DNA of 64,000 nucleotides. Source: Candidatus Omnitrophota bacterium (GTDB lineage Bacteria > Omnitrophota > Gorgyraeia > Gygaellales > Profunditerraquicolaceae). Below the pieces are notes generated by a model. It was not told the origin of the DNA and did no database searches. It saw only the letters and a list, made by a program, of their open reading frames with translations. This document shows, in pieces, positions 3,200-39,900 of the stretch. A program made the translations under genes and the position numbers. The stretch's first letter is position 1, and the number at the start of each line of letters is the position of its first letter. Where the stretch lies: NCBI GenBank assembly GCA_043812955.1, contig JBDRLN010000018.1:13849-77848 (forward strand), in the 5' to 3' direction.

Positions 3200-3290
3200 G
3201 GATTTATTATACGGATTTTCACAGATTATCCGCGTAAATTTATCCGCGTAAATCCGTTATTTTATCCGTGTATATCCGTGTCAATTCAAA
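3176..3290. repeat. Intergenic repeat family D, copy 1 (ACGGAT / ATCCGCGTAAATCCGTTATTTTATCCGTGT iterated motif)
   Basis: TTTTTTTTCACGGATTCTCACGGATTTATTATACGGATTTTCACAGATTATCCGCGTAAATTTATCCGCGTAAATCCGTTATTTTATCCGTGTATATCCGTGTC; a near-identical block lies at 14741-14812. Confidence 0.6.
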
Positions 3291-3294
3291 ATTA

Positions 3295-4970: not shown

Positions 4971-5615
4971 TTATTTAATGTTTTCCTTCGGTTCCTTAAG
5001 CCCTTCGGAATCCTTAATCTCTTTAACCTTAGTAGTCTTAGGCAGAATCACGATCTCAACCCTGCGGTTAAGCCTTCTGCCCTCTTTGGAATCATTAGCG
5101 CTGACCGGATGATATTCACCGTAACCTATAGCAGACAAACGCTCAGGCAATAAACTCTTTTGATCGATAAGATAATGTAAAACGCTTAAGGCCCGGGCAG
5201 TAGATAACTCCCAGTTTGACTTCCAGCTGGATACCTTAATAGGTTCGTTATCGCTATGCCCCTCTATGCCTACCTTAAATTCCGGGATATTCTCTTGTAA
5301 AACCCGGGCAACTTTATCCAGTATCGGCATCGCCTCAAGCCTGATCTTATCCTTCCCGGAATCAAATAATATATCTGCTACAAAAGTAATTACCAGGCCC
5401 TTTTCCATCATTTTAAGCCGGACGTTTTTATCCTTGATCTCCTGGGACAACCTTTTCTCCAGAATGTCTTTCACCTGGCTTAATTCATCTACCTGCTTGG
5501 ATAAATTCTCGATCTTCTGCAGATCTGAACGCCTCCCCCCCTGAAAAACAAAAGTGCACCCGTTCAAGCCTAAGGCTGAAATCAATATCATAAATAAAAT
5601 TTGCTTTTTCATCAC
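4971..5615 (-). CDS. OmpA-family lipoprotein (Pal/MotB-like peptidoglycan-binding domain)
   Basis: Signal peptide with a lipobox-like LGLNGC, then an OmpA C-terminal motif block GHSDNEP...TARALSVLHYL...NRRVEIV. Confidence 0.7.
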   Translation of the reverse strand: MMKKQILFMILISALGLNGCTFVFQGGRRSDLQKIENLSKQVDELSQVKDILEKRLSQEIKDKNVRLKMMEKGLVITFVADILFDSGKDKIRLEAMPILDKVARVLQENIPEFKVGIEGHSDNEPIKVSSWKSNWELSTARALSVLHYLIDQKSLLPERLSAIGYGEYHPVSANDSKEGRRLNRRVEIVILPKTTKVKEIKDSEGLKEPKENIK

Positions 5616-5668: not shown

Positions 5669-6952
<1,284 letters not shown>

Positions 6953-6982
6953 TTAATTATTGCCTTGCATTAATAAAAGGTA

Positions 6983-7056
6983 CAGGTAAAGGTATAGGTA
7001 GAGATTTTGTCTTTGTTTTTCTTTACCTATACCTCTTCCTCTACCTACTTCTATAT
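6983..7056. repeat. Intergenic imperfect inverted-repeat family F, copy 1 (AGGTAAAGGTATAGGTAGAG ... CTTTACCTATACCTCTTCCTCTACCT)
   Basis: Lies between the purA start and the LeuA-like gene stop. The same architecture recurs at 11848-11925. Confidence 0.5.
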
Positions 7057-7062
7057 TTGTCC

Positions 7063-10219: not shown

Positions 10220-11806
10220 TCATAATTTTATTACCTTTACAGCCAATATATTGTCCAGCTTTTTGATCTTTTCCAAAAGTTCAGGGGATATCGAGCTATC
10301 CACGTTTAATAAACTTACCGCTTCTTGACCCTCGATCTTACGGCCAAAGGTCATTGCCGCGATATTGATATTGTGCTTTCCTAAAAGCGTACCGATACTT
10401 CCGATGATCCCGGGTTTATCCCAATTTTTCATAGTCAACAAGTATCCTGACGGAGAAGCCTCAACATAAAAATCATCGATATTAACAATCCTGGGCTCTC
10501 TCTTCGGAGAAAGTGATGCCGCAAACTTACGGGTTTCTTTATCAGTGATTATCTTAAGCGAGATCAGGTTCACGAAATCCTCTTCCACTAAAGCCTTGGT
10601 CTCTTTGATCTGGATGCCCCTCGCCTTGGCGATTGGGATAGCATTGATAAAATTAACCGTATCTTTTAAAACCGGTTTTAAGAGCCCTTTGACTAATGCC
10701 ATAGTCAGAGAAGTGGTGTTATATTTGGTGATATCGCCGCTATACAAAATACTGATTTCATTGATCCTTCCCTCGATTATCTGGCCGGAAAAATCTCCCA
10801 ATTTCTCAGCCATAATTATATACGGCTGTAATACTTTATAAAGCTCTGAGTCAATATTTGGATAATTTGCCGCATTGCGAATGCCTTTACCGGATAAAAA
10901 ATCCCGCACGCATTCAGCTACTTCAATAGCTACGTTTACCTGGGCCTCTTCGGTTGAAGCCCCTAAATGGCAGCTGACTACCACATTATCCATTTTTAAT
11001 AATTCCGAATTCGGATCCGGCGGTTCTTTTTCAAATACGTCTAAAGCAGCACCCGCGATCTTGCCTTCTTTAAGCGCTTTGATCAAAGCCTGTTCTTCGA
11101 TTATCCCGCCCCTAGCGCAATTAATTACCCGAGCTGTCTTTTTCATTAAATTAAACTCTGCATCTGAAATCAGGTATTTAGTATCTTCGGTTAGAGGGAC
11201 ATGCACAGTAATAAAATCCGCAGTTTTTAATAATTCATTTAATTCTACCGCTTCGATCCCCATATGCTGGGCTGCTTCGCGGGATAAATAAGGATCGTAG
11301 GCCAAAACCTTCATCCCGAAAGAAAGCGCCCGCTTAGCCACTTCTGAACCGATTTTGCCCAGGCCGACTACACCCAGAATTTTCTGGTAAAGCTCGACTC
11401 CCATAAACTTAGAACGTTTCCATTCCCCGGCTTTAGTAGTAGAATTTGCCAAAGGGATACTCCGGGCCAAAGATAAAATAAGGCTCAAGGTCTGCTCGCA
11501 GGTAGAAATAGTATTGCCCGCCGGAGTATTCATTACCACTATGCCTCTCTCAGTTGCTGCCGGCAGATCTACGTTATCCAGGCCCACACCTGCCCTGCCG
11601 ATAACTTTCAGTTTATTGGCCGCGGCAATAATATCCTTGGTCACCTTGGTAGCGCTCCTGATTAAAAGGGCATCGTAATCTCCGACCATAGCCTTTAATT
11701 CTTCTGGCTTCATCCCGGTCTTGATGTCAACCTGAAAATCCTTATTTGACTTTAATATTTTTAAACCTTCTTCGGACAAAGAATCACTGACTAGAATTTT
11801 GAACAT
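10220..11806 (-). CDS. serA: D-3-phosphoglycerate dehydrogenase (with C-terminal ACT domain)
   Basis: 528 aa with the NAD-binding VGLGKIGSEVAKRA motif, the 2-hydroxyacid dehydrogenase catalytic region and a C-terminal ACT-like region. Confidence 0.9.
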   Translation of the reverse strand: MFKILVSDSLSEEGLKILKSNKDFQVDIKTGMKPEELKAMVGDYDALLIRSATKVTKDIIAAANKLKVIGRAGVGLDNVDLPAATERGIVVMNTPAGNTISTCEQTLSLILSLARSIPLANSTTKAGEWKRSKFMGVELYQKILGVVGLGKIGSEVAKRALSFGMKVLAYDPYLSREAAQHMGIEAVELNELLKTADFITVHVPLTEDTKYLISDAEFNLMKKTARVINCARGGIIEEQALIKALKEGKIAGAALDVFEKEPPDPNSELLKMDNVVVSCHLGASTEEAQVNVAIEVAECVRDFLSGKGIRNAANYPNIDSELYKVLQPYIIMAEKLGDFSGQIIEGRINEISILYSGDITKYNTTSLTMALVKGLLKPVLKDTVNFINAIPIAKARGIQIKETKALVEEDFVNLISLKIITDKETRKFAASLSPKREPRIVNIDDFYVEASPSGYLLTMKNWDKPGIIGSIGTLLGKHNINIAAMTFGRKIEGQEAVSLLNVDSSISPELLEKIKKLDNILAVKVIKL

Positions 11807-11847
11807 CGCGTTAATCCTCCTTACTTATCTGTTAAATATAATCTAGG

Positions 11848-11925
11848 CATAGGTAAAGGTGTAGGTATAGAAAAATTTACGCCTTAAAAAATGCTTTACT
11901 CTACCTCTACCTTTTCCTTTACCTT
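11848..11925. repeat. Intergenic inverted-repeat family F, copy 2 (GCATAGGTAAAGGTGTAGGTATAG ... CTCTACCTCTACCTTTTCCTTTACC)
   Basis: Same GGTAAAGGTRTAGGTA ... TACCTMTACC architecture as 6983-7056, here between the serA start and the aminotransferase stop. Confidence 0.5.
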
Positions 11926-11927
11926 CT

Positions 11928-13064
11928 TTATTTTAAAAATATCTCTTCCGCTGCTTTGACCCCTGCGCCCAATTGAAACTTATAACCCATCTGGGTCAGG
12001 ACTTTTTCTAAACAAGATATTCCTAAAATAATATCAAACTCTCCGATATAACCCATGTGGGCGATCCGGATAAGCTTGCCTTTCATTTCTGATTGGCCGC
12101 CGGCAATAGTAACCCCATGAGTATCCCGCATAGTCTTGACCAGCTTTTCTCCGTCGATTCCAGCCGGAACTTTAGCCGCGGTTACCACATCTGACGCAGC
12201 GTGAGGTGCAAAAAGCTCTAACCCTAAAGCTTTCATTGCAGCCCTGGTAGCATCCGCCATTTTCTGGTGCCGCTTAAAAATATTCTCCAGGCCATCCTGT
12301 TTCATTAATTTGATTGCTTCGTTAAGCGCAATAATCAAACCAATAGCCGGTGTCCAGGGAGTATCGGTGCTCTCGTAAGCCTTCTGGCAGGCTTTTAAAC
12401 TAAAATAATATTTCGGGCATTTAGATGTTTCGATCAATTTCCAGGCCTTGGGGCTGACTGAAATAAAACCTAGTCCCGGAGGAAGCATCAGCCCTTTTTG
12501 AGAACCTGAAACCACTACATCGCAATTCCAGGCATCGGTCTTTAAATCAATCGCTCCTAAGCCGCTGATAGCATCAACCACCAATACTGCCGGAGTATCT
12601 TTTAAAACCGCACCGATCGCCTGCATATCTACCGCGACACCGGTTGAAGTTTCGCAAAGAGTAGTAAATACCGCCTTTATTTTGGGATTGCTCTTTAATT
12701 TTTTTTCTATCTCTTTGGGGTCTACTGCCTGGCCCCATTCCACTTTTAATACTTCACAATTAATCCCGTAGGCTTGGGCGATTTCAGTCCAGCGCTCGCC
12801 GAATTTACCGCCCTCTACAGTGATAACCGTATCGCCTGGCGAAAGCAGATTTATAACTGCCGCCTCCATCGCCCCGGTTCCGGAAGAAGCTAAAATAAAG
12901 ACGTTACTGGTGGTCTGGTATACGTATTTTAAACCTTCATGCGCTTCTTTTAATATCACCTGGAACTGCGGAGTGCGGTGATGGATTATTGGTCTGGCCA
13001 AAGCCTCACAAACTTCCGCCGGCAATGGTGTCGGGCCTGGAGTAAGTAAATAATTTTTCTTCAT
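11928..13064 (-). CDS. class V aminotransferase, AGXT (serine-pyruvate / alanine-glyoxylate) family; candidate non-canonical phosphoserine aminotransferase
   Basis: 378 aa with PLP-fold motifs and the lysine region SGSQKGLMLPPGLG; it sits immediately downstream of serA. Confidence 0.75.
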   Translation of the reverse strand: MKKNYLLTPGPTPLPAEVCEALARPIIHHRTPQFQVILKEAHEGLKYVYQTTSNVFILASSGTGAMEAAVINLLSPGDTVITVEGGKFGERWTEIAQAYGINCEVLKVEWGQAVDPKEIEKKLKSNPKIKAVFTTLCETSTGVAVDMQAIGAVLKDTPAVLVVDAISGLGAIDLKTDAWNCDVVVSGSQKGLMLPPGLGFISVSPKAWKLIETSKCPKYYFSLKACQKAYESTDTPWTPAIGLIIALNEAIKLMKQDGLENIFKRHQKMADATRAAMKALGLELFAPHAASDVVTAAKVPAGIDGEKLVKTMRDTHGVTIAGGQSEMKGKLIRIAHMGYIGEFDIILGISCLEKVLTQMGYKFQLGAGVKAAEEIFLK

Positions 13065-13091
13065 CGTAATTCCCTCCCATCTTAACCACTC

Positions 13092-13124
13092 CCACCCCGT
13101 AGGTGTCTTACACCTACGGGGTGG
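13092..13124. repeat. Repeat family C hairpin, perfect 14-bp stem (CCACCCCGTAGGTG tctta CACCTACGGGGTGG)
   Basis: Intergenic between the clpP stop and the aminotransferase start. An identical copy lies at 22698-22730, and diverged in-frame derivatives sit inside the giant gene at 31268-31294 and 61111-61150. Confidence 0.8.
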
Positions 13125-13130
13125 CTGTGG

Positions 13131-13736
13131 TTATTTTTTCTTACCTATAAATACTTCATCCACTAAGCCATACTCTTTGGCTTCCTGGGCTGACATAAAA
13201 AAATCCCGGTCGCTGTCATTTTTAATCCTCTCAATCAACTGGCCGGTATGCATTGCCAGAATCTCATTTACTCTATCTCTGAGTTTTAAAATCTCCTGGG
13301 CATGCCTGGAGATATCTTCTGCCGCTCCCTGAACCCCTCCCCAGGGCTGGTGTATCATAACCCGCGAGTTAGGCAAAGAAGAACGTTTCCCTTTGGTTCC
13401 GGCGCATAAAAGAATTGCCCCCATACTGGCAGCCTGGCCCACGCAATAAGTAGCCACATCGCACTTAATAAATTGCATTGTATCATAAATAGCCATCCCG
13501 GAAGTAACCGAACCTCCGGGCGAATTAATATAAAGGCTGATATCTTTGGCCGCATCTTCCTGCTGTAAAAATAACATCTGGGCAATAATCAGATTTGCCA
13601 CATTATCATCTATGGCAGTGCCTAAAAAAATTATCCTGTCCTTTAAAAGCCGGGAGTAAATATCATAAGCCCTTTCATAACCCCGGGCAGTCTGCTCGAT
13701 CACCATCGGAACCAAAACCTGATTCTTAATATCCAT
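13131..13736 (-). CDS. clpP: ATP-dependent Clp protease proteolytic subunit
   Basis: ClpP catalytic motifs GQAASMGA and MIHQPWGG. The ORF track start at 13790 is probably too long: the ATG at 13736 ([16 protein letters not shown]...) is preceded by AAGGAGGTGGAGA. Confidence 0.88.
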
Positions 13737-13842
13737 TCTCCACCTCCTTAAGCTCACACCTGCGCCGTAGGCGCATTTAGCGAAATCCACCAGCCCTTTT
13801 GGATATTTACTTAACGTAGGTTCCCTAAAAGGGCTAGGCTAG

Positions 13843-14718: not shown

Positions 14719-14740
14719 TGGTTGCTATTCTCCTTCTTTT

Positions 14741-14812
14741 TTTTACACGGATTTCCGCGGATTATCCGCGTAAATCCGTTATTTTATCTGCGTGTATCCG
14801 CGTTTTACATCC
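14741..14812. repeat. Intergenic repeat family D, copy 2
   Basis: TTTTTTTTACACGGATTTCCGCGGATTATCCGCGTAAATCCGTTATTTTATCTGCGTGTATCCGCGTTTTA, nearly identical to 3176-3290 and likewise just upstream of a minus-strand gene start (tig). Confidence 0.6.
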
Positions 14813-17930: not shown

Positions 17931-17933
17931 GAT

Positions 17934-18045
17934 GACACGCTGTCCTATCTAATCGGGACACGCTGTCCTAACTGAAGCGGAAACAGTGTCCCCTTTGACT
18001 TGGACAGCGTGTCCGCTTTAGCTCTAACAGCGTGGCAGGGATTCA
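17934..18045. repeat. Repeat family A cluster: iterated imperfect palindrome GGACACGCTGTCC / GGACAGCGTGTCC with flanks (CTAATCGGGACACGCTGTCC ... AAGCGGAAACAGTGTCC ... GGACAGCGTGTCCGCTTTAGCT ... ACAGCGTGGCAGGG)
   Basis: Fills the whole kdsD-kdsA intergenic space. Units of 40-65 nt nearly identical to it occur in-frame in the giant gene at 26208-26280 and 59308-59372. The plus-strand ORFs 18000..18275 and 18032..18283 are just translations of this element. Confidence 0.8.
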
Positions 18046-20805: not shown

Positions 20806-22605
20806 TTAGTTTTCGGGTTTACGGAAATCCTGGTTGCAATAGAGTTTATGGTATAGCCCCTGCTTTTCCAGGAGTTCGGCGTGCGTTCCTTCCTCGACTA
20901 TCCTTCCTTCGCTTAAAACAAGTATCCGGTGGGCATGCCTAATAGTAGAAAGACGGTGAGCGATGATAAATACCGTACGTCCTTTGATCAGCTTATTTAT
21001 CGCCTCCTGCACTATACGTTCAGCCTCAGTATCTAACTGCGAGGTTGCCTCATCTAATATTAATATCGGAGGGTCTTTAAGAATCGCCCGGGCAATAGCA
21101 ATCCTCTGCCTTTCTCCTCCGGATAATTTCATCCCCCTGTCTCCGATAAATGTTTCATATCTTAAAGGCAGCCGTTTGATAAAATCATGGGCATGGGATT
21201 GCACTGCAGCTAATTCTATTTCTTCATAATTCGCGTCCGGCCGGCCATAAGTGATATTAGTCCTGATGGTATCATTAAACAGAATAGTCTCCTGAGTAAC
21301 AATCCCTATTTGCTGGCGCAGGGATTTCAGGCTGAAATTCTTCGTCTCCTGTCCATCAATTAAAATCCTCCCGCGTAAAGGATCATAAAAACGCGGGATC
21401 AGATCTACCAGGGTAGTCTTGCCGGAACCGCTAGGCCCCACTATAGCCACGACCTGGCCTTTTTTTACCTCCAGGTTAATGTTCTTTAAAATCTCCTGGT
21501 TTCCATGATTAAACCAGACATCTTCAAACAGGATACTGCCTTTAAAATCCTTCAATTCCTGGGTATTCTTCCTATCTAATACCGTCGGAATGGTATCTAA
21601 GACTTCGTAGATGCGGGCATTGGCTGCCATAGCCTGCTGGATTATGGAATTAACCTGGCTCAATTTTTTAAAAGGCCGAATCAAAGAGAGCAATGCTCCC
21701 ATAAACAAACCAAACATGCCGAAAGAAAGTTTTCCGGCAATTACCTCTTTACCCGCCCATAAAAAAACAAAAATACCGGCAAGGACGCCTAAAATCTCGG
21801 TAAACGGCCCTAATAACAGTGTACGCTTAATAGATTTCATTGAGAGTTTATAATAATACTGGTTGGTCTGGCTGAATTTGGCTACCTCGTAACTCTCCAT
21901 ATTAAATGCCTTGATGATTCTGGCGCCCAATATACTCTCATAAAGTATGGAATTAATATCAGCCATGGCCTCCTGGGTCTTACGGGATAACTTTCTTAAT
22001 ACCCTACCTACCTTAATAATAGGAAAACTGATTAAAGGAAGAAGCACCAGGGCAGTCAGGGCCAGCTTCCAATGGATAAAAAATATTAAACAGGTAAAAA
22101 GAACTACCTGCAGAGTCTGGTAAATCAAGTCCGTAGAACCATAAGAAACAGCATTTTCCACTAACTTTACGTCGTTGGTGATCCGGGAAATCAGCTCGCC
22201 TCCGCGCTTCTGGGTAAAATAATCCATGGATAAGGCGTGAAGCTTGGTATAAAGCTTGGCCCGGATATCCCTAACTACTAACTGGCCTATATCAGACATA
22301 AGATAACTCTGCAAAAAACCGAATATCCCCTTAAATACAAACAGGATTATTGTAGCCACGGCCATATAATTAAGCATGGCCAACGGCTGAATACCGTTAA
22401 TAAAACTGATGAAATTGGAAAGGAAGGCTGGTAATTTGGTCGGAATAATGATTTGCTTATTGGTCAGTACTTTATCCGCCATCGGTACTATCATACCCAA
22501 AGAAACGCCATCAAATATAGCAGAAAAAAACATGCATATGCCTGCTATAATGAAAAGCCCGGGATAGGGTTTGACAAATCGCAGCAATTTCAGGTAATCA
22601 CGCAT
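20806..22605 (-). CDS. msbA: lipid A export ABC transporter (fused permease/ATPase)
   Basis: 599 aa with a six-TM ABC exporter domain, Walker A GPSGSGKTT, signature LSGGERQRIAIARA and Walker B ILILDEATS; the LPS cluster context fits. Confidence 0.82.
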   Translation of the reverse strand: MRDYLKLLRFVKPYPGLFIIAGICMFFSAIFDGVSLGMIVPMADKVLTNKQIIIPTKLPAFLSNFISFINGIQPLAMLNYMAVATIILFVFKGIFGFLQSYLMSDIGQLVVRDIRAKLYTKLHALSMDYFTQKRGGELISRITNDVKLVENAVSYGSTDLIYQTLQVVLFTCLIFFIHWKLALTALVLLPLISFPIIKVGRVLRKLSRKTQEAMADINSILYESILGARIIKAFNMESYEVAKFSQTNQYYYKLSMKSIKRTLLLGPFTEILGVLAGIFVFLWAGKEVIAGKLSFGMFGLFMGALLSLIRPFKKLSQVNSIIQQAMAANARIYEVLDTIPTVLDRKNTQELKDFKGSILFEDVWFNHGNQEILKNINLEVKKGQVVAIVGPSGSGKTTLVDLIPRFYDPLRGRILIDGQETKNFSLKSLRQQIGIVTQETILFNDTIRTNITYGRPDANYEEIELAAVQSHAHDFIKRLPLRYETFIGDRGMKLSGGERQRIAIARAILKDPPILILDEATSQLDTEAERIVQEAINKLIKGRTVFIIAHRLSTIRHAHRILVLSEGRIVEEGTHAELLEKQGLYHKLYCNQDFRKPEN

Positions 22606-22697
22606 CAGTTTCTCCTAAGATATATTGCTTTTTTTAGAGAAATATATATTAACACAATAGTTTATTTTTGTCGAGTGTTCTATTTTTAACCCTTCGT

Positions 22698-22730
22698 CCA
22701 CCCCGTAGGTGTCTTACACCTACGGGGTGG
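22698..22730. repeat. Repeat family C hairpin, second perfect copy (CCACCCCGTAGGTG tctta CACCTACGGGGTGG)
   Basis: Identical 33-mer to 13092-13124, sitting in the divergent msbA / comFB-cheR intergenic region. Confidence 0.8.
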
Positions 22731-22787
22731 AGCTGGTTCATAAATATTCTTTTAAATAGTACATATTTATGCTATAATTTTATCCCT

Positions 22788-23888
22788 ATGGCCCAAAGCA
22801 AATTAAGAAACATTACTGAAGAGATGATCCGGGAGCGCTTAAATAAAGCCCTGGCTATCCATTATGATATCTGCAGCTGCATAACCTGCGAAACCGATAT
22901 GCTTGCCTATATCCTTTCCCGGGTCCCGGCCAATTACTCAACCACTGAAAAAGGCGCAATCCATACCCTGGCTGAAAAAAACAACCAAGAAGAAGAAAGT
23001 TTAATTAACCACCTGATCTTTTCCGCCATAGATATCGTAAGTAAGAAACCTACGCATGAATTAAAGGAAGACCATCAGGCACTACTTAAATTAATGCTCA
23101 AGAAGATATTCCATGAAAGAGGCGTAGATTTCCGCAATTACCACCAGGAGATCTTAAAAAGAAGGCTGGCACTGAGGATCCGCGCCAACGGCTTAAAATC
23201 ATATTCCGAATATATGAACTTCCTCTTCAGCAATCCCAAAGAATACGATAAGCTATTTGAAACATTATGCATAAATGTTTCCGAATTTTTCCGGGATAGC
23301 AGTATCTGGATAACCGTAAAAGCCCTTTTGGAAAACCTGGTCCGCTTAAAAAATAAAAACAACGAAAAGAGTATAAAAATCTGGTCAGCCGGATGCGCCT
23401 GCGGAGAAGAGCCTTATACCATTGCCATCATTTTAAAAGAGCTGTTAAATGACGATCTGAATAAATTCGACTTAGATATCTACGGCACGGACATTGATAA
23501 AGAAGCCCTGGAGGCCGCAGAGGAGACGGTATATCCAAAAGCAAGCGTTAAAAATTTAACCCCTCGGATCGCCGAAAAATACTTCCTGGCTATCGGCGGG
23601 AATTATAAATTAAGGAGTCAAATAAGGGATATGGTTAAATTATGCTATCTGGACCTGACTTCTTTTGATCTCATTGAAAATGTTGATGTGATATTTTGCC
23701 GGAATGTTTTTATTTATTTTAATCTTCGTCTTCAAAAAGAACTGGTCACTAAATTCCACAGGTCCCTGAAATCCGGCGGCTATATAGTTATGGGAAAGGT
23801 CGAAACTATTTTAAGAGATTCCGAAGAATTGTTTCAAGAGGTAGATGCCGGGGCTAATATTTTCCAAAAAAAAATAACCAGTAAATGA
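22788..23888 (+). CDS. ComFB-like N-terminal domain fused to a CheR-type SAM-dependent methyltransferase
   Basis: The ORF track starts at 22668, but its N-terminal stretch overlaps the family C hairpin. The ATG at 22788 gives MAQSKL.... The N-terminus HYDICSCITCETDMLAYILSRVPANY resembles the ComFB cysteine motif. The C-terminal ~270 aa is CheR-like (KIWSAGCACGEEPYTIAI, VIFCRNVFIYF). A TATAAT box lies 11 nt before the ATG, so the transcript may be leaderless. Confidence 0.7.
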   Translation: MAQSKLRNITEEMIRERLNKALAIHYDICSCITCETDMLAYILSRVPANYSTTEKGAIHTLAEKNNQEEESLINHLIFSAIDIVSKKPTHELKEDHQALLKLMLKKIFHERGVDFRNYHQEILKRRLALRIRANGLKSYSEYMNFLFSNPKEYDKLFETLCINVSEFFRDSSIWITVKALLENLVRLKNKNNEKSIKIWSAGCACGEEPYTIAIILKELLNDDLNKFDLDIYGTDIDKEALEAAEETVYPKASVKNLTPRIAEKYFLAIGGNYKLRSQIRDMVKLCYLDLTSFDLIENVDVIFCRNVFIYFNLRLQKELVTKFHRSLKSGGYIVMGKVETILRDSEELFQEVDAGANIFQKKITSK

Positions 23889-23889
23889 T

Positions 23890-24165
23890 CTAAAGCGGGA
23901 TCGTGCTTACTTTATTGAATTTAACTCCAATTTCCCTTCCTTTAACCCAAACTATTTCTCCGCAGACATAAAAATGCCCTAATCCAGGCAGGATCTGAAA
24001 TTGGCCAAATATAGAACTACCCGGCTGCAATCCAGCATCTAAAACCACCTTCATCCCACCGGCGGAGATATTTAAAACTATACATTTTTCTACCTTACCG
24101 TCGCCTTTATGGTAAAACGCGCCGTCTTTTTTATCTACCCGGTTAAATTTACGCTTCTCTTTCAT
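23890..24165 (-). CDS. PilZ-domain protein (c-di-GMP receptor-like)
   Basis: 91 aa with RKFNRV (RxxxR) and LNISAGGMKV (D/NxSxxG) motifs. Confidence 0.7.
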   Translation of the reverse strand: MKEKRKFNRVDKKDGAFYHKGDGKVEKCIVLNISAGGMKVVLDAGLQPGSSIFGQFQILPGLGHFYVCGEIVWVKGREIGVKFNKVSTIPL

Positions 24166-24957: not shown

Positions 24958-27900
24958 CTACGGCCTAATAGCAATAAATCTCATCCCTCCATAATAAAAA
25001 GTATTATACATATCATTAATCGCCTCGATTACCCCTATTTCTTTGAGGCTTTCTACATCAATCGGTTTAATATCAAGCCGGGGGTTAACACTTTTTAACT
25101 GTTCAAAATCAAACCTGCGGCCTTCATTTTTAACCAAAGCCAAAGCTATTGTTTTATATAAAATCCGGAAATTATTACTAATGGGTATCTTATTATAATT
25201 ATTTCTGCTAATTACCTTTGTTTTAAGCGATAATTCCTCCATAGCCAAATGATTAATTCCGTCGACATAACTCTTATCAACCATATCAGCCATCATAATA
25301 TCGTTTTCCGCCTCCTCAAATAACAGATTGAGTTGTGCCGCGTCTTCCTGGCTGAGGGCTTTACCTAAAATCCATCTTAATTCTACTTTAAACAATAATT
25401 CTTCAACCGATAACAAGGCCAGACTAGCTTTAAGATGAAACCCCCGGGCAAAATACCTGCTGGCATAAGAATCACTCTGCATTATCTCGGCAGTATATTC
25501 CGGAGTAAGCGCTAAGTTTATTTTTTCCTTAGCCTCGGAATATTTACCCTGTCGATTTAAGGCATCGGCTAAAATTATATGGCTTAAAACCAGCCAATCC
25601 TGTCTTTTATGATTCACCAACCATCTCTTAAACTTTAATAGTTCTTTTGCGTTATTTTCTATCTCCTGATTTAAATATACGCCTCCTACGTAGAACTTAT
25701 TTTTAGTCGACATTTTATCCAGATATTGGATTTTTTCAAAAATATACCTGGTCCGATTATCAGCGCCCTTAGACAAGCGGACTGCTTCATCAAAATCCGC
25801 TAGACACTCTTTAAGATTGCTTTTATCAAAATTAAGTATGGCCCGGATATAATAAGCTACCGGAGAAAAAAAATTCGGCGTATTGATAATCTCTTCGAGT
25901 TTATCAAAAGCCTCTTTAGTAAATCCTCTTTTTTTCTCGGCCAGTTTAAGATAAAAATCTTTCATTTTTATATCCTGCGGGTCATATTTAAATAGCTCGC
26001 CCAATAATCCTAATGCCAACGGATAATTCTTCGGTTCTCCTGATATAAGTTTTGAATTAATGATCCGGTATAATTTTTCCTTGTGCTTGTCAACAACCGG
26101 CGACGACGAGGGACACCCTTTCAGCCAATCGAGGGACACCCTTTCAGACAATCGGGATGATGTCCCCTGCTGTTTTACATCCAATACCATAGCCACCAAC
26201 GCTCCCATTCCTTGCCACGCTGGCAAACCTAATCGGGACACGCTGTCCGAGCCAAAGCGGACACTGTGTCCTAGAGCGGCCGGCGAGCTAGAACAAATAT
26301 TAGCTACTTCTGCAAGAAACCTTAATGTTTTTCTAAACATAATCTTGCCCACTCTATCCTTGCACCAAAGCGCCTTGCCAATATCCAAAGCCAAGGGATT
26401 ACAATCAAGCTTCCTTCTCTTTACATTAGAAAACCAGTCCTTCTGTAATTTGGCATAGTCAGACCCGGTAAATTCAATTTTCCCCATGAGCTTGACATTA
26501 ATAGTATTTAAGTCAAACTGTTCATCTTTGCTATTAAATACGTGGCCGTGGCGCCACATAGTTTCATCAAAGTATGTCCTGATAAACAAAATAACAGGCA
26601 AGTGTTTAAGGTCTTCTTCTGCGGCATCAAATTTATTTTTAATTTTCTTCATGCCTAATAGGAAAACCTCAAGTATCATCTCCTCTAAGAACTTCTTAAT
26701 ATTATTTTCTTCTATTCTGTTGCTTATAATATAAACATTGCCGTAAAATTGCTTAGAGTCGCTTTCCATTATTGAATTAAATAATGACTGCGGCATGCCG
26801 TGAATACCTATATCAGGCAATCTTTCAATTAATTTTTTTACCTGGATTTGATCTTGCCGTAGATTATTTTTAACAGCCGGCGAGCTTCCAACGCAAAGCG
26901 TATCGCCTGCCTGCCGATCAGGCAGTAATCCGTCACTTCTTCTGGCGGAAGACTGCGCCACCGGCAAGGCGGCCGGCGAGCTGGAGCGAAACGTACCCCG
27001 CGACGAGGTAGTTCCGTTTAATCCCGTATTATTTAAAGCCGCAAAGGGAAAGGTATATTCTTCTTCTATTTTCACCTCAAAATCCGCCAACCTCTCCTGC
27101 GCTTCTATAACGCATCCTATCCTGGAATTACTCTCATCCAGATCAACCATCTCTCCGACTAAAATTATCCTTTTCACTCCCAGTTCAAACTTTAATATCC
27201 ATCGTAACCTATCCCAATTTGTAGATAAGCCAACCGGGCAAGCCATCCCTTCCAATTCCACGGGCTCCAAATCATCTAAATAAGTATTAATTAAAATCCC
27301 GTATAAATTATATTTTCTAAATAATTTACCTGCCTCTGTCAATAAATCCATCTTTGGCTTTAACCTGATTGTACTTTTAATATAACGCTGGTCTCCTATC
27401 CCGGCGAATATGGGCCCAGGATAAGACCGGACACGATCGGATAACCTATGAATAAAACTCCGATAACCTCTAACGGCATTCCCTCTTATTGCTTTCCGCA
27501 GTATCAAGGGGACTCTCTTAAAATTCCTGCTGATATAATCATCTAACACATTTTCAAAAAATAACGGGTGGCTCCATAATATAATCTCGTGATTATTCCG
27601 CGAAATACTCCGCCGTAATTCCTCTGAGGCTAAAACTGTGGATATCGGGATAAGCCTTTGACCATTGCCTGCAGGCGGACTGGAAGGTTTAGGCCCTAAC
27701 CTATTGACGCTCCGATCAGCTACAAATTTGGAGGCAAACCCCAATAAAACCCTACCTAACCTAAGGAATTTAACCGGCGAGCTTCCTTTCGGCACTGGCG
27801 AGGCGGAGGTTTTTTGGACTAAGGGAACAGCTGTGCCTGCAGATTTACCCAGCTGATAAATATATCTAAAAGCCTCATCTGGATTGTCACAAGAACTTAA

Positions 27901-30900: not shown

Positions 30901-33900
30901 CATTTTCTCGCTAGCCATATTTTCTAATGCCTGCGGGCTTTGAACTGTGATGCCTAAACCGAATCCATTAAACATCTCGGCATTAATCCCAAACGTCCTA
31001 GCGGCAAAATAGGAAACAAAATAATCATTGCCGATCGAATTATATAGGACATTGCCTCCTAAGACCCCCATTTTTTTCAGGAGATGTAATATTGTAATAT
31101 AGTGTATAAGGGCGTTATCTAATCTTAACTTGTCATACTTAATATAGTCTCTAGTCCTTAACCATGTTAACGTTTGCCGGTCTAAATGAATTTGGTCAAG
31201 TATCCTTTCTATGTCGTTTTCGAAGAATAAACGGTAGAAATATTCCTCATCTAAAGGCGAGCTGGACCCATTTCCACCCCGTAGGTGGAAATGGTTTGCG
31301 GCTGGCGAGCTTCCGACACAAAGCCTGGCGCTTGCCTGCCGGTCAGACAGGGATCCGCCACGTATTGTGGCGCGGGGCTGAAGCACTGGTTCCTCAAACC
31401 AATTCACTATCAATCTACGGGTTCCCGGGATCATCTCGCCACCATTGATGAGAGGGCTCGATGTCGAGGCGGAACGCTTATCCATTAACATTACCTCCGG
31501 GAAACCTTCACTCAGGAATTTTGCCAAAGTTTCAACTGCGAGCTCCGCATCTTCGCCTTCTGCAATAAGCTTTACCTGGGCTGCGCTTATCCATGAATCA
31601 ACGATAGCATCCGCAACCGCTGCCAGCGAATCCAGTATTTTTTTAAGATTTACGGTTTCATTTTTATGTTCTATATAGATACGGGATAAAAATTTATTAG
31701 CTAGCGCCACTAAATTGCTGATATCATGTTCGTGTACTTCTTCGCAATTATCAACTATACATATTTTTTCTATCCTTTTCAGAGTATTTTCTTCAGGTGA
31801 AGATTTTACCGGCGAGCTGGATATAACAAAACTGCTACTATTTACTTCTGCCATTTTCACTTTATCTAATTTATAATAAGTTGTATATACGGGATCAGGA
31901 ATATTAGAAACAATTCTAAAGGGATCTGATTTTTGAAAAATTAATGGGATGCCTAATCCGGCATTATAATTTACTATTTTCAAACCTTGATGTGGTATAA
32001 ATTTAAAATCTCTTCCCCAAACCTTTATACTCCGCAAAATTGTTTTAGGTTTTATGCAAACTAAATTTGCAAATCCTACTCCTTCCGGTTTCAGCCTCCT
32101 TTTAAGAACATTGTAAACTTCCACTCTATCTTTGAAATATTGGCCAACATTATACCCAACCACAAAGATATCAAATAGGCCGGCCCCCAGAAATAATTGG
32201 CCCTCGTTCAAATCCCGCAAAATAAAATTATTCCTAAGGTGTTGAGAGTATCTTTCCGCCCTATCTAGGTCTATTTTCACTCCTAACCTTTGCATAAATC
32301 GGCCGGCTATACTATTTGCGTCTATTTCAACGAGATCATGCTTCGCTAAGGAGTAAAAACTTATCCCCTCTATATTTATTCTTTCTTTTACTTCCAGCAA
32401 AAACATTAATTCAAAAAGTTCATAACCCCTGCCCGGGCCGACCCATAAAATACTGATTTCGGGATTTCTTTTCATACTTTTTTTAATTCTGCTTAAAATT
32501 GACTTATAGAGATGTCCGTCGAATGCTTGGTTAATCTCCCTGAAAAAGTGGCTAATATAACCTTCAGGATAGTTAATCATCGGCGAGGCGGCGGTATTGT
32601 TCCTTATGGCCGAATTGCGACCGGAATGAATCGTTTGATTGATGGATTCATTTTTTGACTCAATGCCAGACAATGGGCTAGATACAGCGTCTACATCTTC
32701 TTTTTTGCTTAAATTTGAAGATATCGATGAAGTAAAGATAAGCCTGTCCACCCAGAAAAAAATCGCCGCGCCGATTAAATTAGCTATGACCGTCGCAAAT
32801 AAGCTGACGCCTAACCACCAGACAACCAACCACAAAACAGGGGTACTCAACTGCCAACGGATAAGATAAAGAATAAACCTTTTTATTGATAGCCCGCTGT
32901 TCGTTTTTTCTGCCGGATTGCTGGATTCTTTCTCTACAGGCGAGGCGGCGGCATATATGTTATTGATTATAAAACTGGCTGAATAAACGGCAGGGTTTAA
33001 AAACGCAGCTTTAAAAATTAGCAGCGGCTTTGGACCTGCCCTGATAGGACAGCTATCCATCAGCGGACTTGAACCGGAGTTTTCCGTAGAATTATCGGTT
33101 AATGTAATAGCCTGGGCCAAGCTCTTGCCTTCCCAAAGTAACCTGGCTACAAAATATTTGGAAGGTACATCGTATGGAAAATAATAATCCAGCGCTCCAT
33201 ACAGCATCTTTCCGTATTTATAAGTCCAAACCGGTTCTCTTGATAGGTTATCCCATAAACTCACCCTGCTCGCATCCAGTAAATATTTCTGCAATATCCC
33301 TACCGGGACAGCGCTGGCGATCAATTCACCTTCTGAGATATATTTACCTTCGGTTTCGGAAGATTTAATCATCTGAGATAATAACCTTTTTTCTTCTAAG
33401 CGTATAAGATTTATTAAATTCGGCAATCCTTCCCGATGAGCCTTTCTCAATTTTCCTGGCCATAACGCGTGAATAAATTCATGGGCAACAGTTAGTTCGG
33501 AATTTAACTCTACTAAATCTTTTGACCAAAGTTTTCTCCGTTTAACCAATATAGTCCAATTGCCAAGCACGGACTTATAAGCTGTCCCTAAACCCGGACA
33601 ATAACCTCTACCTCGACAAAAATCATGTAGCCGATATTTTACATGCATATAAAAATACAAAATAATCGTAGAAATAGCGATGCTGATTAGGATAGAACTA
33701 AATTCGTTGTCCGGGATTAACCCAAAAGGCTTAATTATAAATTCAGCATATGCCCAGAAAACCGTAAAAGCAGGCAACCCCAACAATAAAAACCCGGCTA
33801 AAAAAATAACCGACTCGCCGATAAAACCTACCATGTTTAACCATGAAGTACGCGGCGTATACGGTCTAACCGTAATTGCCGAAATAAATTTTTTAATTTC

Positions 33901-36900: not shown

Positions 36901-39900
36901 GTAGCCCACTCCTTTTTCCAACCTCTCTTCTTTAATACCGAAATGCCGGAATAAACCCGGCTGCTGCAGATAAACATAATATTCATTTACTGAACGCTCT
37001 AAAGCTCTTCTTAACATACAATAAATAAGAAAAGAGCCCAATCCTTCATTCCAATAATCTTCTTTTATCTTTAAATAACTTTCTCGCTCGTGCCCCATTT
37101 TGAGCTCATTTATAAGAATATAAAATAAGATATTTCCTACTCGCGATTCTTTAAAATCAGGCACGTCAACTTTTAGAATTAAATAATGAAATTGTTCACC
37201 TTGGCTTAAATTGATAAAGGTGCGCTTTTCTCTTACTATAAACATCCCTTTCCTGTTTTTTATGCCTCCAATTAGCCTGCCGTCTATCGCCTTAAGCGTG
37301 ATCTGCCTTAGCGCATACTCAAGGCCGTTTCTTTCAACGCCTGAATTGCCCGCCGGCGAGCTGGAAATTGTATTAAATTCTTGGGGACTAAATAGAATCT
37401 TTACGTCCGCGCCCCGATACAAACAGATCCCTTCTCTCCTTCTTATCGTCCGTCTGTTTAACTCTAAACCATACTGTTTCTTATAAATATCTTCCGCTAA
37501 ATCAGCAACTAAATAAGGGTTCCCGGGAAGGAAGTAGTAATCTGGGCCGAATTCTACTAAGATATCGATCATATCTATAAACAGCCTATTTAAACCCGCG
37601 CTATTTACGGCTTTTCTCAAAATAAAAAACTGGGCATAGGCATATTTATGAAAACCTGCGTCATAGATTGTGTTTGAACTTATAAACTTAAACGCTGATT
37701 TAAAAATACAATATGTGAATTCATTTCTTTGCTCCTGTCTAATCTTTAGTTGATTTAGTAGGACAGCCGCTGTAAATTCTGCAACAAATTCCTGTAATCC
37801 GGCAAAGGCTCTATATTTTGAATCAACGGAAAGCGGATTAGAATTATCCTTTAATTTTACAATAAACGATTGATTAGGGAAAAGAGCGTAAAGCCAATTA
37901 TGGCCTATTTCATGCGCGATTATTCTTAGGATTCCTTCAATACCATGGCTCAAATAATAGCCCTTAAGCCTGGCATAGTCATATTTAAAATTCGCGTTGG
38001 CTGTTCCACGATAAGAACCTATATCTAAATTCTGTATAATCTTTTGCGTAATACGCCTAACTATCGCGGGCGTAAATAAGGTATCTAATGACAATAACTG
38101 TACCGAAAGCGCAATATTCCACCCCAATAACTCTTCTTGAATCATTTTTAGCGTATTGTATTTAAAATACCGGTCTATCTTTTCTCGATACTCCATAGAT
38201 ACAAGTTTCTCGTTCAAATCACTCCTTACCAGATCGATTGAACGCCGTAGCAAAAAATTGATCCGCGAATTAATTAATAGGATTAGTTGATGGGTTCCAA
38301 CTGGCCATTTACCAGTTGCCGGCGAGCTGGCCTGCGGCGCCAGCGGCGAAGAAACAAATTCAAATTCTGATGGGTTTCTTTGGACCTTGATTCTTACACC
38401 AAGATGATCCGAGGCCAAGAAGATTCCTCCTTCATTTTTTATAACTTTTAATCCCTCAAATAGTTTCTTTAAACGTTCCTGATTCACTTCATCTGTTTTA
38501 AATAAAGAACGATACTGGGATATATACTCGTTAAAGGTGGGTTTAATGGTAACCGTATCAACAAAATCTCCATTCTCTGCCCAACGAAACACCCTAAAAA
38601 CAAGATTATAAATATACCAAAGAAACATTATCTCTGGATTTATCGCTGCTAACTCATCATCTATGACTTTATAACTACTCTTAAGCCTCCCATCGGGAAA
38701 TTTTATTATCATTTTATTAACATACCCTACAAATTTGCTTACCCTCCATTCAGACACCGGCGGGCTTGAGTCGAGAACCTCATTTTTTTCTATTTCTACA
38801 AATATTTCCGGGTATAGTTTCTTTAACCATGGCGTAATTTGTACGTCATTTTCTTTATAGATCACCTTAAATCTCTCTCCCAATTCTTCCGTAAATGGCA
38901 ATTGCATGCGGCCATCCGCCAAAGAATGGCCCCTAAGTATGAGCTTAAGCGCTGCGTCAGTAAGTTTAAGGCTAACTTTCGGATTTTCATTTTTATAATA
39001 TAGACTTAAAAGATACCAAACTTCACCGATATATATCGGAATATTTAAAGATTCATGATAAGACATATCTGGCTCTCTTTTTATTACCTCATCCGCGCAA
39101 TAGTTAAACATATCCACAATTAAATCTTCCGGCAGCTGACATAGTATAACGAAAAGTTCTTTATGTACGCTTTCACTTTCTAAAAATAGATAATATATAT
39201 TACTAGGATCAATATAATAATAAGCTTTCATGACTTCCCTTACCCACCTTGCCGTACTTTCATAGTCACCCCCTATCTTAAGATTGCGTAGTTTATCCTC
39301 TATTTCTTGAATAGATATTCCTTTGGGTGGAAAAAGATACCGTCCCTCCTTTAAAACGCTCATATCAGGCGTTCCCCATTTCCATTCCCGCTGCCGCCAA
39401 TAGGGATGCATATTAGTCTCAACCGGCGAGGCGGCGGTTTCACTCCTGACCCTGCTTTCATCCGCCGGCGAGCTGGCATAAAGCGTAGATGCCGGTATTA
39501 TTTTTCCGTCTACGGTTGCATCATTACCGCTAACCAATAAAGCAGAATAATCTCTCCGCAGAGAACCAGTAATGGCTCTGTGAAGATGTGCCGGCAAAGG
39601 CACCTCTTCACCCTGTTCTATCAAAACATTCGTAAAAAATATGGCTTCTGCTCTGTGTTGCGTTAACATGCCACTCTGCGCCGGATCTAAGAGATCGATA
39701 TATTTCGGCTCTACCAACGCGCGGATGTTGTTTTTCAAACGACAATAACGCGTGTCGTCCTTTACGATTTCGAAAAAGATATCAAAGTTTTCTTGTGTTA
39801 TACACTCGCAGACATAGGCAAGCTTATAAATACCCATTTTTACCGCGTATAAAAGCGGTATATTTTTATCCCAAGCCTCTATTCCTATGCTCCATGGTAA

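Follow-up and report, generated by a model that had tools for sequence, protein, structure and literature searches.

A short palindromic repeat shared by intergenic spacers and a giant gene of an Omnitrophota bacterium, probably a non-autonomous REP- or MITE-like family

What kind of element is a perfect 33-nt hairpin that stands, letter for letter the same, in two different intergenic regions and whose building block is also translated within a giant gene? The question is raised by a stretch of 64,000 nt from a metagenome-assembled genome of an uncultured Candidatus Omnitrophota bacterium (NCBI GenBank assembly GCA_043812955.1, contig JBDRLN010000018.1, positions 13,849 to 77,848 of the forward strand), which is called here the window and is numbered from its first letter. 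An earlier note, made from the sequence alone, had named this element repeat family C and had offered three possibilities for it, namely a repetitive extragenic palindromic (REP)-like element, a bidirectional terminator and an attenuator. The first of these has held up, whereas the other two do not seem to describe the primary nature of the element. We consider it likely that family C is a short, non-autonomous palindromic repeat that spreads at the DNA level into insertion-tolerant places of the Omnitrophota genome. In support of a REP-like nature, the hairpin is an inverted doublet of a palindromic unit, identical copies stand in unrelated flanks, and the corresponding spacers of relatives lack family C; additionally, a sister family is widespread in metagenomes, mostly just past stop codons.

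The hairpin, CCACCCCGTAGGTG-TCTTA-CACCTACGGGGTGG, has the same letters at 13092-13124 and at 22698-22730, as had been noted, and the two intergenic copies share even the loop, the sequence around them being unrelated. Its 14-mer half-site has seven exact matches in the 64-kb window, against 0.11 expected from shuffles, and in none of 100 shuffles was there more than one match. All family C counts given here cover the window, in which two of the four sites are extragenic (one doublet each) and two lie within the giant open reading frame (ORF), with three units between them. When up to three mismatches were permitted across the window, no further units were added to these seven and, therefore, the family is homogeneous rather than diverged: none of the seven units deviates from the 14-mer. 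The 15-nt unit, CCACC-TACGG-GGTGG, folds into a mini-hairpin by itself, with a stem of 5 bp (6 bp counting a T.G pair), and, since it is self-palindromic, the 33-mer consists of two palindromic units in inverted orientation.

Copy 1 extends over 13083-13133, as its core doublet is enclosed by an outer stem formed by TAACCAC (13083-13089) and GTGGTTA (13127-13133), the latter taking in the clpP stop codon (13131-13133, minus strand). As RNA, this copy has a fold energy of -42 kcal/mol (z = -9.8). Copy 2 extends over 22688-22738, with AACC (22688-22691) and GGTT (22735-22738) on the flanks of its core; its fold reaches -36 kcal/mol (z = -8.2), and its AACC/GGTT outer stem is weak. Known classes of elements did not account for the hairpin. 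Rfam gave no matches over the whole window at the gathering threshold, and only generic matches to microRNA-precursor hairpins under a permissive one; the 13-14-mers of family C had no literature match by sequence. An integron attC site was ruled out by inspection only, as the outer motifs are unlike RYYYAAC/GTTRRRY and the setting is a housekeeping operon, and a clustered regularly interspaced short palindromic repeat (CRISPR) was ruled out because there is no array. Likewise, there is no resemblance in sequence to a fragment of a tRNA or a transfer-messenger RNA (tmRNA), as judged without an ARAGORN tRNA/tmRNA scan.

The position of each intergenic copy relative to genes and promoters is well defined. 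Copy 1 is on the transcribed strand between clpP (13131-13790, minus strand), which is upstream, and a class-V aminotransferase gene (11928-13064, minus strand), which is downstream, with the clpP stop codon on one side and the aminotransferase ribosome-binding site (RBS; GGGAGGG, 13072-13078) on the other. Copy 2 lies between the genes for an ABC exporter (20806-22605) and a ComFB-CheR fusion (22788-23888). Pfam supports all four of these assignments, which had been proposed beforehand. The predicted promoter of the ABC exporter gene (22646-22674, minus strand) has the form TCGACA-17-TAATAT, and that of comFB-cheR (22751-22778, plus strand) the form TTTAAA-16-TATAAT, with an upstream TG (extended -10). 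Copy 2 sits between the -35 boxes of these two predicted divergent promoters, that is, upstream of each, so that its transcription from either is improbable, and it is probably untranscribed from both. On the other side of the same locus, the convergent cheR (plus strand) and PilZ (minus strand) genes are 1 nt apart (23888-23890), which leaves no space for a terminator structure.

If family C were a conserved site, it would be expected in relatives. The SerA and CheR proteins of the window have their best homologues in Candidatus Omnitrophota (CheR is 100% identical to MFH1397156.1), and the syntenic loci compared were L028-L032 (about 76% SerA identity), L033 (85% CheR identity) and L035 (80% CheR identity). 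In these loci, about 130 kb, there are no family C units. The spacer between clpP and the aminotransferase gene has 27 nt in L031 and 44 nt in L028, with the RBS only in both; L033 has direct repeats of GTTGCTAGG in it, and L035 a GGGGACAGCGACTATTTTTT hairpin that is unrelated. In the ABC/cheR region, an alignment of the window, L033 and L035 shows that both promoter blocks are well conserved, and the slot between them is occupied by family C in the window, in L033 by GGGGACAGCCTCCG doublets (about 110 nt) and in L035 by a degenerate palindrome. More generally, spacer length in this gene cluster, compared at nine positions in the three close genomes, goes from 1 to 184 nt, with different palindromic or direct repeats gained or lost; for instance, spacers of 1-11 nt are found in L035 at cluster positions where the window or L033 hold repeats of 52-127 nt. 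Some spacer repeats are inherited, as family A (see below) is common to the window and L033 between kdsD and kdsA. Family C is, then, a repeat that has an identical core wherever it occurs and that is missing at the orthologous sites of relatives, where spacer repeats turn over. Its absence from these spacers, together with such turnover, argues that it is one of several fast-turnover repeat families and not a conserved cis-regulatory site. As a separate observation, the clpP/tig spacer of L033 (822-948) holds a 127-nt palindrome of GGTGC/GCACC repeats, and the same spacer is shorter in L035 (11 nt) and in the window (52 nt).

Members of the family are also found elsewhere. Among representative genomes of 185,579 species, the exact two-arm pattern has one occurrence, at L001, where the doublet lies 25 nt past an ORF in a metagenome-assembled genome of 39% GC that is labelled Planctomycetia. 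A search of metagenomes with a degenerate two-unit pattern, for which less than one match was expected by chance (an estimate), returned 24 loci, 16 of which have the arms CCACCTACGAGGTG/CACCTCGTAGGTGG, 1 nt away from those of family C. This sister family and L001, which has the exact family C arms, make 17 loci. The loops of the sister family have 4-8 nt and several are palindromic, so that the entire element is a perfect palindrome; its outer stems, of 0-11 bp, vary in sequence and keep complementarity, and its doublets occur in two configurations. In about 18 of 42 flanks of family members, an AACC motif is found 4-8 nt outside the core. Most of the metagenome members are extragenic. Of 20 intergenic doublets in a table that takes in both window copies, L001 and the metagenome loci, 11-12 were 2-33 nt past a stop codon, in gaps between co-directional genes, and at L011 three spacers in a row within a lepB-pgsA-plsY cluster have a doublet each.

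[quoted passage not shown] Four copies were found, with the hairpin near one end (L006:1467-1626, L009:4888-5046, L010:7372-7528 and L014:782-923), the last of them truncated at the hairpin. No autonomous insertion sequence (IS) sharing the ends of the 160-bp element was found in the fetched metagenome loci, and the sister-family loci have no genes in common with those of Omnitrophota. Regarding the other matches of the search, L002, L008 and L016 are palindromes with other 5-mers and were not counted among the 16, while L007/L017, L013, L019, L021 and L024, of which three are in GC-rich DNA, consist of other 5-mers in direct orientation and were taken as unrelated; L021 and the viral match L026 are one contig.

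The stability of the hairpins and their preference for gene ends raise the possibility of a function in transcription or in mRNA stability. The element would then be a U-tract-independent, possibly bidirectional terminator or attenuator, or a stabiliser of mRNA 3′ ends, kept by selection and homogenised within each genome by gene conversion. Besides fold energies of -42 and -36 kcal/mol, this explanation has in its favour that copy 1 begins at the clpP stop codon, that 11-12 of the 20 tabulated doublets are 2-33 nt past such a codon, that the window has no evident canonical terminators (22 hairpin-plus-U structures were found, 21 being expected, hence no enrichment), and that some palindromic repeat recurs in the ABC/cheR slot of all three related genomes and in the clpP/aminotransferase spacer of two of the three. 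Additionally, copy 1 resembles a canonical terminator on the plus strand, where a T6 run follows the outer stem; however, this run is the complement of the last Lys codons of clpP and faces the antisense direction. On the sense strand (minus for copy 1), there is no T-run at either intergenic copy, in agreement with the remark made beforehand that neither copy is followed by a U-run, and a canonical intrinsic terminator is rejected for this reason and because terminator-like sites occur in the window at chance level. Neither is copy 1 at the end of a transcription unit: it is inside what relatives show to be a tight operon, as they keep its two genes 27-44 nt apart, with the RBS only. Such spacers in the distant relatives, and those of 1-11 nt in L035, suggest that the genes are co-transcribed and the hairpins dispensable. 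At L011, the hairpin is found in three consecutive spacers of one operon. Copy 2, between the -35 boxes of both predicted promoters, is unlikely to be included in a transcript. Consequently, a terminator or attenuator seems to us an unlikely primary role, although a putative side effect of copy 1 at the RNA level (on stability or through partial attenuation) is possible.

The situation of copy 2 might suggest, instead, a binding site for a protein. In this explanation, the 14-5-14 palindrome would be the operator of a dimeric regulator, or a site for a nucleoid or topology protein (as REP elements and bacterial interspersed mosaic elements with gyrase or IHF), with a regulon including clpP-aminotransferase and ABC/cheR. 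A perfect palindrome centred between two divergent promoters is what such a site would look like, the 33-nt sequence is the same in both intergenic copies, including the loop, and the outer AACC motif is conserved across family members. By contrast, copy 1 is past a stop codon and not at a promoter, exact units are also found within an ORF and in other arrangements, most members are in tight gaps of co-directional genes, and the orthologous slots of relatives contain unrelated sequence even though the neighbouring proteins are 80-85% identical. For these reasons, an operator is, of all the explanations discussed here, the one to which we give least credit.

The copies within coding sequence provide a different kind of evidence. 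The giant ORF (24958-63975, minus strand; 39 kb, 13,005 aa) is uninterrupted and consists of unrelated enzyme domains joined by 43 [SA][SA]SP linkers. The domains include several methyltransferases, a Glu/Leu/Phe/Val dehydrogenase, a Pol-beta-type nucleotidyltransferase, B12-binding/radical SAM, CheR-like and HPr domains, and this composition agrees with the "multi-enzyme" class described for giant proteins of Omnitrophota (10.64898/2026.06.07.730766; 10.1101/2023.11.21.568195); linkers, hairpins, palindromes and intergenic repeats are not mentioned in these two preprints on Omnitrophota giant genes. A single family C unit is found in frame at 31268-31294 (minus strand) as a perfect 27-nt palindrome, CCATTTCCACC-CCGTA-GGTGGAAATGG, with an 11-bp stem and a fold of -21 kcal/mol; it reads HFHLRGGNG, at about residues 10894-10902. 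Two direct 15-nt units are found, also in frame, at 61118-61150 (minus strand), with CGC between them and a period of 18 nt; they read HPVGGRHPVGG (residues 943-953), and TTCCACC/GGTGGAA flanks lengthen the stem. The translation of the ORF thus agrees with the earlier note, which had read HLRGG and HPVGGRHPVGG in frame at these sites. The description of the in-gene copies as diverged has to be dropped, however, because their cores are identical to the 14-mer and their arrangement alone, single or in direct tandem, differs.

Both sites have an insertion-like context, being located 0-1 nt upstream of an SSP-coding motif, with another such motif 5-24 nt further upstream. At the first of them, an SSSP-coding junction motif (31256-31266, minus strand; TCCAGCTCGCC on the coding strand) is 1 nt downstream of the hairpin and a second, SSP-coding motif (31300-31311, minus strand; AGCTCGCCAGCC) is 5 nt upstream, both forming an 8-nt direct repeat, AGCTCGCC, that frames the insert. 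At the second, an SSSP-coding motif (61098-61110, minus strand; TCTAGTTCGCCGG) is just downstream of the tandem units and an SSP-coding motif (61173-61182, minus strand; AGTTCACCGG) flanks the insert upstream. As to a possible target-site duplication, the flanks of the in-gene copies carry direct AGCTCGCC / AGTTCRCCGG, but these are a recurrent linker motif. The paralogous linkers at 26790-27010 and 40320-40540 are without the 48-nt segment (hairpin plus second SSSP) found at 31268, and the paralogous linker around this hairpin is 66-82% identical, whereas the core of the hairpin is 100% identical to the intergenic copies. As core identity is above that of the linkers, the 31268 hairpin would be younger than the linker, that is, an insertion, and the in-gene copies in general look like recent in-frame insertions. 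A homologue search with the giant-gene module around this hairpin found none.

Copies of the intergenic families A and B, described below, are placed likewise. Five in-gene copies belong to family A, B or C, and each is at most 13 nt from an SSP-coding motif, the sequence so close to such motifs amounting to about 8% of the gene. Near linkers, strong local hairpins show an enrichment of about 3-fold, a figure to which the GC-rich motif itself contributes, and repeats from the intergenic families of L033 and L035 are also present within the giant genes of these two relatives. In the simplest interpretation, stop-free inserts whose length is a multiple of three are tolerated nowhere in the ORF except in linkers.

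The junction motif has 13 nt, [TG]CC[AG][GC]CTCGCCGG on the coding strand, and encodes SSSP or AASP with fixed codons, TCC AGC TCG CCG G or GCC GCC TCG CCG G; among its 43 sites are 26280-26292, 31256-31266, 37353-37365 and 41193-41205. The string CGGCGAG is present 32 times on the plus strand of the giant gene and not once in the other 25 kb, with genes oriented alike, and the motif is found in the L033 and L035 giant genes too. Such conservation of codons suggests a nucleotide-level signal or a very recent common origin, and not a peptide motif only. When paralogous modules were detected by module-wise BLAST, residues 8871-9072 and 11212-11412 (58% identity), as well as residues 12623-13005 and 4994-5372 (35% identity), were aligned from residue 1 past the SSP motif, and the motif is, therefore, the N-terminal border of duplicated modules. 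The L033 giant gene at the same locus encodes 46,785 aa, and that of L035 at least 7,224 aa. In the last ~3,000 aa compared, just the final ~420 aa align, with 75% identity to L033 and 65% to L035 (window 24958-26230, L033:12157-13420, L035:12168-13330), and the homology breakpoint relative to L033 falls at an SSP-coding motif. Almost all of the module content thus appears to be replaced between close relatives whose flanking genes are still 80-85% identical. At this last junction, the window has a 78-nt family A hairpin between the motif and the conserved C-terminal module, which is absent in L033. Additionally, a linker module of about 107 nt, encoding ATIRGGSLPDRQAGDT.C.GSSPA, has three copies (26867-26973, 31292-31398 and 40397-40503), all of them in the giant gene. 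Within it are three small hairpins rich in GC (GCCAC..GTGGC, CTGCC..GGCAG and CGACAC..GTGTCG).

It might be proposed from these data that hairpin repeats and junction motif mark the recombination junctions of a cassette-like system that builds or reshuffles the giant genes of Omnitrophota. In this model, as modules begin exactly at the motif and homology between the giant genes of relatives breaks there, the palindromic repeats common with intergenic DNA would be sites of module capture, duplication or loss, by means of hairpin-stimulated breakage, template switching or a site-specific enzyme. We regard this as a speculative proposal, with rather low odds of being right. Less probable still is a purely historical explanation, in which the giant gene grew by fusing neighbours and spacers with resident hairpins became translated linkers, the in-gene copies being relics of this process. 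The giant protein is, in fact, a chain of unrelated enzymes of stand-alone type, three intergenic repeat families are present at module junctions only, and insertion and deletion are equally parsimonious at 31268. By contrast, the cores are 100% identical to the intergenic copies beside linker paralogues that have diverged by 18-34%, and a hairpin is present in the window and absent in L033 beside an otherwise common motif and module. Moreover, there are no evident remnants of stop codons or RBSs, and the in-gene copies are single or direct units, unlike the intergenic doublet.

Family C is not alone in the spacers of the window, and it is best read as one of at least four families of short palindromic repeats (REP/REPIN-like, where a REPIN is a REP doublet forming a hairpin, or mini-MITE-like). 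Family A, made of GGACAGCGTGTCC units in inverted arrays, fills the kdsD/kdsA spacer (17931-18042) and is kept at L033:5046-5150; its in-frame copies in the giant gene (26210-26287 and 59306-59383) adjoin SSP motifs. Family B, AAATAGAAACGTCCCCTA (AAAATAGAAACGTCCCCTA), forms a spacer hairpin at 1462-1582 whose 42-nt arms are 79% complementary, and has an in-frame copy in the giant gene (52267-52290) that reads RKIETSPIL, 9 nt past an SSSP motif. Direct and inverted repeats of the CGCGGATAA / ACGGATTT type are found in the window (3200-3294 and 14719-14804), in L033 (1828-1920) and in L035 (1932-2035 and 7809-7992). Since the CGCGGATAA-type repeats occupy the tig/lptB spacer of all three related genomes, and further spacers in some, they are positionally conserved, unlike family C, and might be a candidate protein-binding array. 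Another repeat family is represented by long imperfect hairpins of GGTA(N)AGG / CCTTTACC-type short repeats in two spacers (6941-7062 and 11807-11927).

How would family C have reached its positions? As all its units have identical cores in unrelated flanks, the spread should be recent. The intergenic form is the inverted doublet, with a REPIN-like architecture and often within an AACC...GGTT outer inverted repeat. The places of the window in which it stands, presumably because insertions are tolerated there, are of three kinds, namely the first nucleotides past a stop codon, before the RBS of the following gene, the unused space that separates two divergent promoters and the SSP linkers of the giant gene, where single or tandem stop-free units with a length multiple of three are translated as short Gly-rich peptides. 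Movement might proceed via a hairpin-forming single-stranded intermediate or through terminal inverted repeats, with a transposase acting in trans. The copies that are transcribed (copy 1 and those in the gene) would be, at most, protectors of mRNA 3′ ends or pause sites, and not dedicated terminators.

Several results weigh against such a spreading repeat. The window proteins that were scanned and the gene calls of the syntenic and fetched loci included no transposase, either a REP-associated tyrosine transposase (RAYT) or one of the DDE type. A high copy number is the hallmark of REP and MITE families, and the 64-kb window gives two doublets and three in-gene units; just one exact doublet, at L001, was found elsewhere among the 185,579 representative genomes. 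The flanks of the intergenic copies have no clear target-site duplication (no direct repeat); their TA/TTAA ends are self-complementary, which makes a terminal inverted repeat indistinguishable from a target-site duplication. The paralogue tree favours neither insertion nor deletion at 31268, as both are equally parsimonious, so that the call of an insertion relies on the age argument. Finally, since some palindromic repeat occupies the ABC/cheR slot in three of three related genomes and the clpP/aminotransferase spacer in two of three, a structure could perhaps be needed in both spacers, with its sequence homogenised per genome, instead of a purely selfish insertion, and, because canonical terminators are at chance level, hairpins without a U-run could be the functional 3′-end structures of this lineage. 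Even with these points taken into account, the spread of a short mobile repeat seems to us the likely explanation.

For the annotation of Omnitrophota genomes, this would mean that perfect hairpins in spacers should not be taken as terminators or operators by default, as they come and go between close relatives. Additionally, young repeats that colonise spacers and are also translated at giant-gene junctions offer a handle on how giant genes evolve, and the origin and turnover of these genes become directly testable with complete genomes. The giant gene itself is, in our opinion, a more novel lead than the repeat, which is an ordinary kind of thing in itself. No description of such repeats in Omnitrophota was found in the literature.

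The REP and REPIN elements of Pseudomonas and Enterobacteria are species-specific families mobilised by RAYT transposases (PMC3337134). Family C resembles them in the length of its palindromic unit (15 nt, versus about 15-20 nt in REP), in the inverted doublets that form a long hairpin and have two configurations, in the long perfect "a-palindrome-a^c" singlets, comparable to family C at 31268-31294, in a location just 3′ of genes (mostly extragenic among the metagenome members) and in a presence that varies between close relatives (PMC3337134). However, the spacer between units has 5 nt in family C (3-8 nt over all the doublets compared), whereas it has 30-70 nt in REPINs (PMC3337134). There are other differences as well. 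A GT[AG]G head is conserved 5′ of the palindrome in REP sequences, while in family C GTAG is within the arm, CCGTAGGTG, and the motif conserved outside is AACC/GGTT, 4-8 nt out. Exact copies of family C are also found within an ORF, no RAYT is included in the scanned window proteins or in the gene calls of the syntenic loci, and the core is nearly invariant across many metagenome populations, although REP sequences are usually lineage-specific. Hence, family C appears REP/REPIN-like in architecture, and membership of the REPINs is not claimed.

The MITEs of other bacteria (e.g., Correia/nemis, ERIC, RUP and BOX) have terminal inverted repeats, and copy 1 is similarly framed by TTAACCAC/GTGGTTA. 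Such elements are non-autonomous, intergenic and often co-transcribed, giving hairpin RNA, and a 160-bp version exists in one metagenome population. By contrast, family C has 33-51 nt, far under the usual size of a MITE, with no demonstrable target-site duplication and no parent IS. As for intrinsic terminators, the likeness is a GC-rich perfect hairpin right past a stop codon (copy 1), and the differences are the lack of a U-tract on the sense strand, the location within an operon, the position of copy 2 outside the 3′ region of a transcript and the lack of conservation at orthologous sites. The in-frame copies recall the Rickettsia palindromic elements (RPEs), which are both intergenic and in frame within ORFs, where they are translated in tolerant regions (PMC10969869). 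RPEs, however, belong to an unrelated phylum, and no similarity in sequence to them would be expected; their length is about 100-150 bp and the peptide that they encode is conserved and has 30-50 aa, whereas the inserts of family C have 27-33 nt (9-11 aa) and occur only in linkers of one giant gene. The finding can be accounted for, in the main, by a new family of REP- or MITE-like repeats whose in-frame copies are RPE-like.

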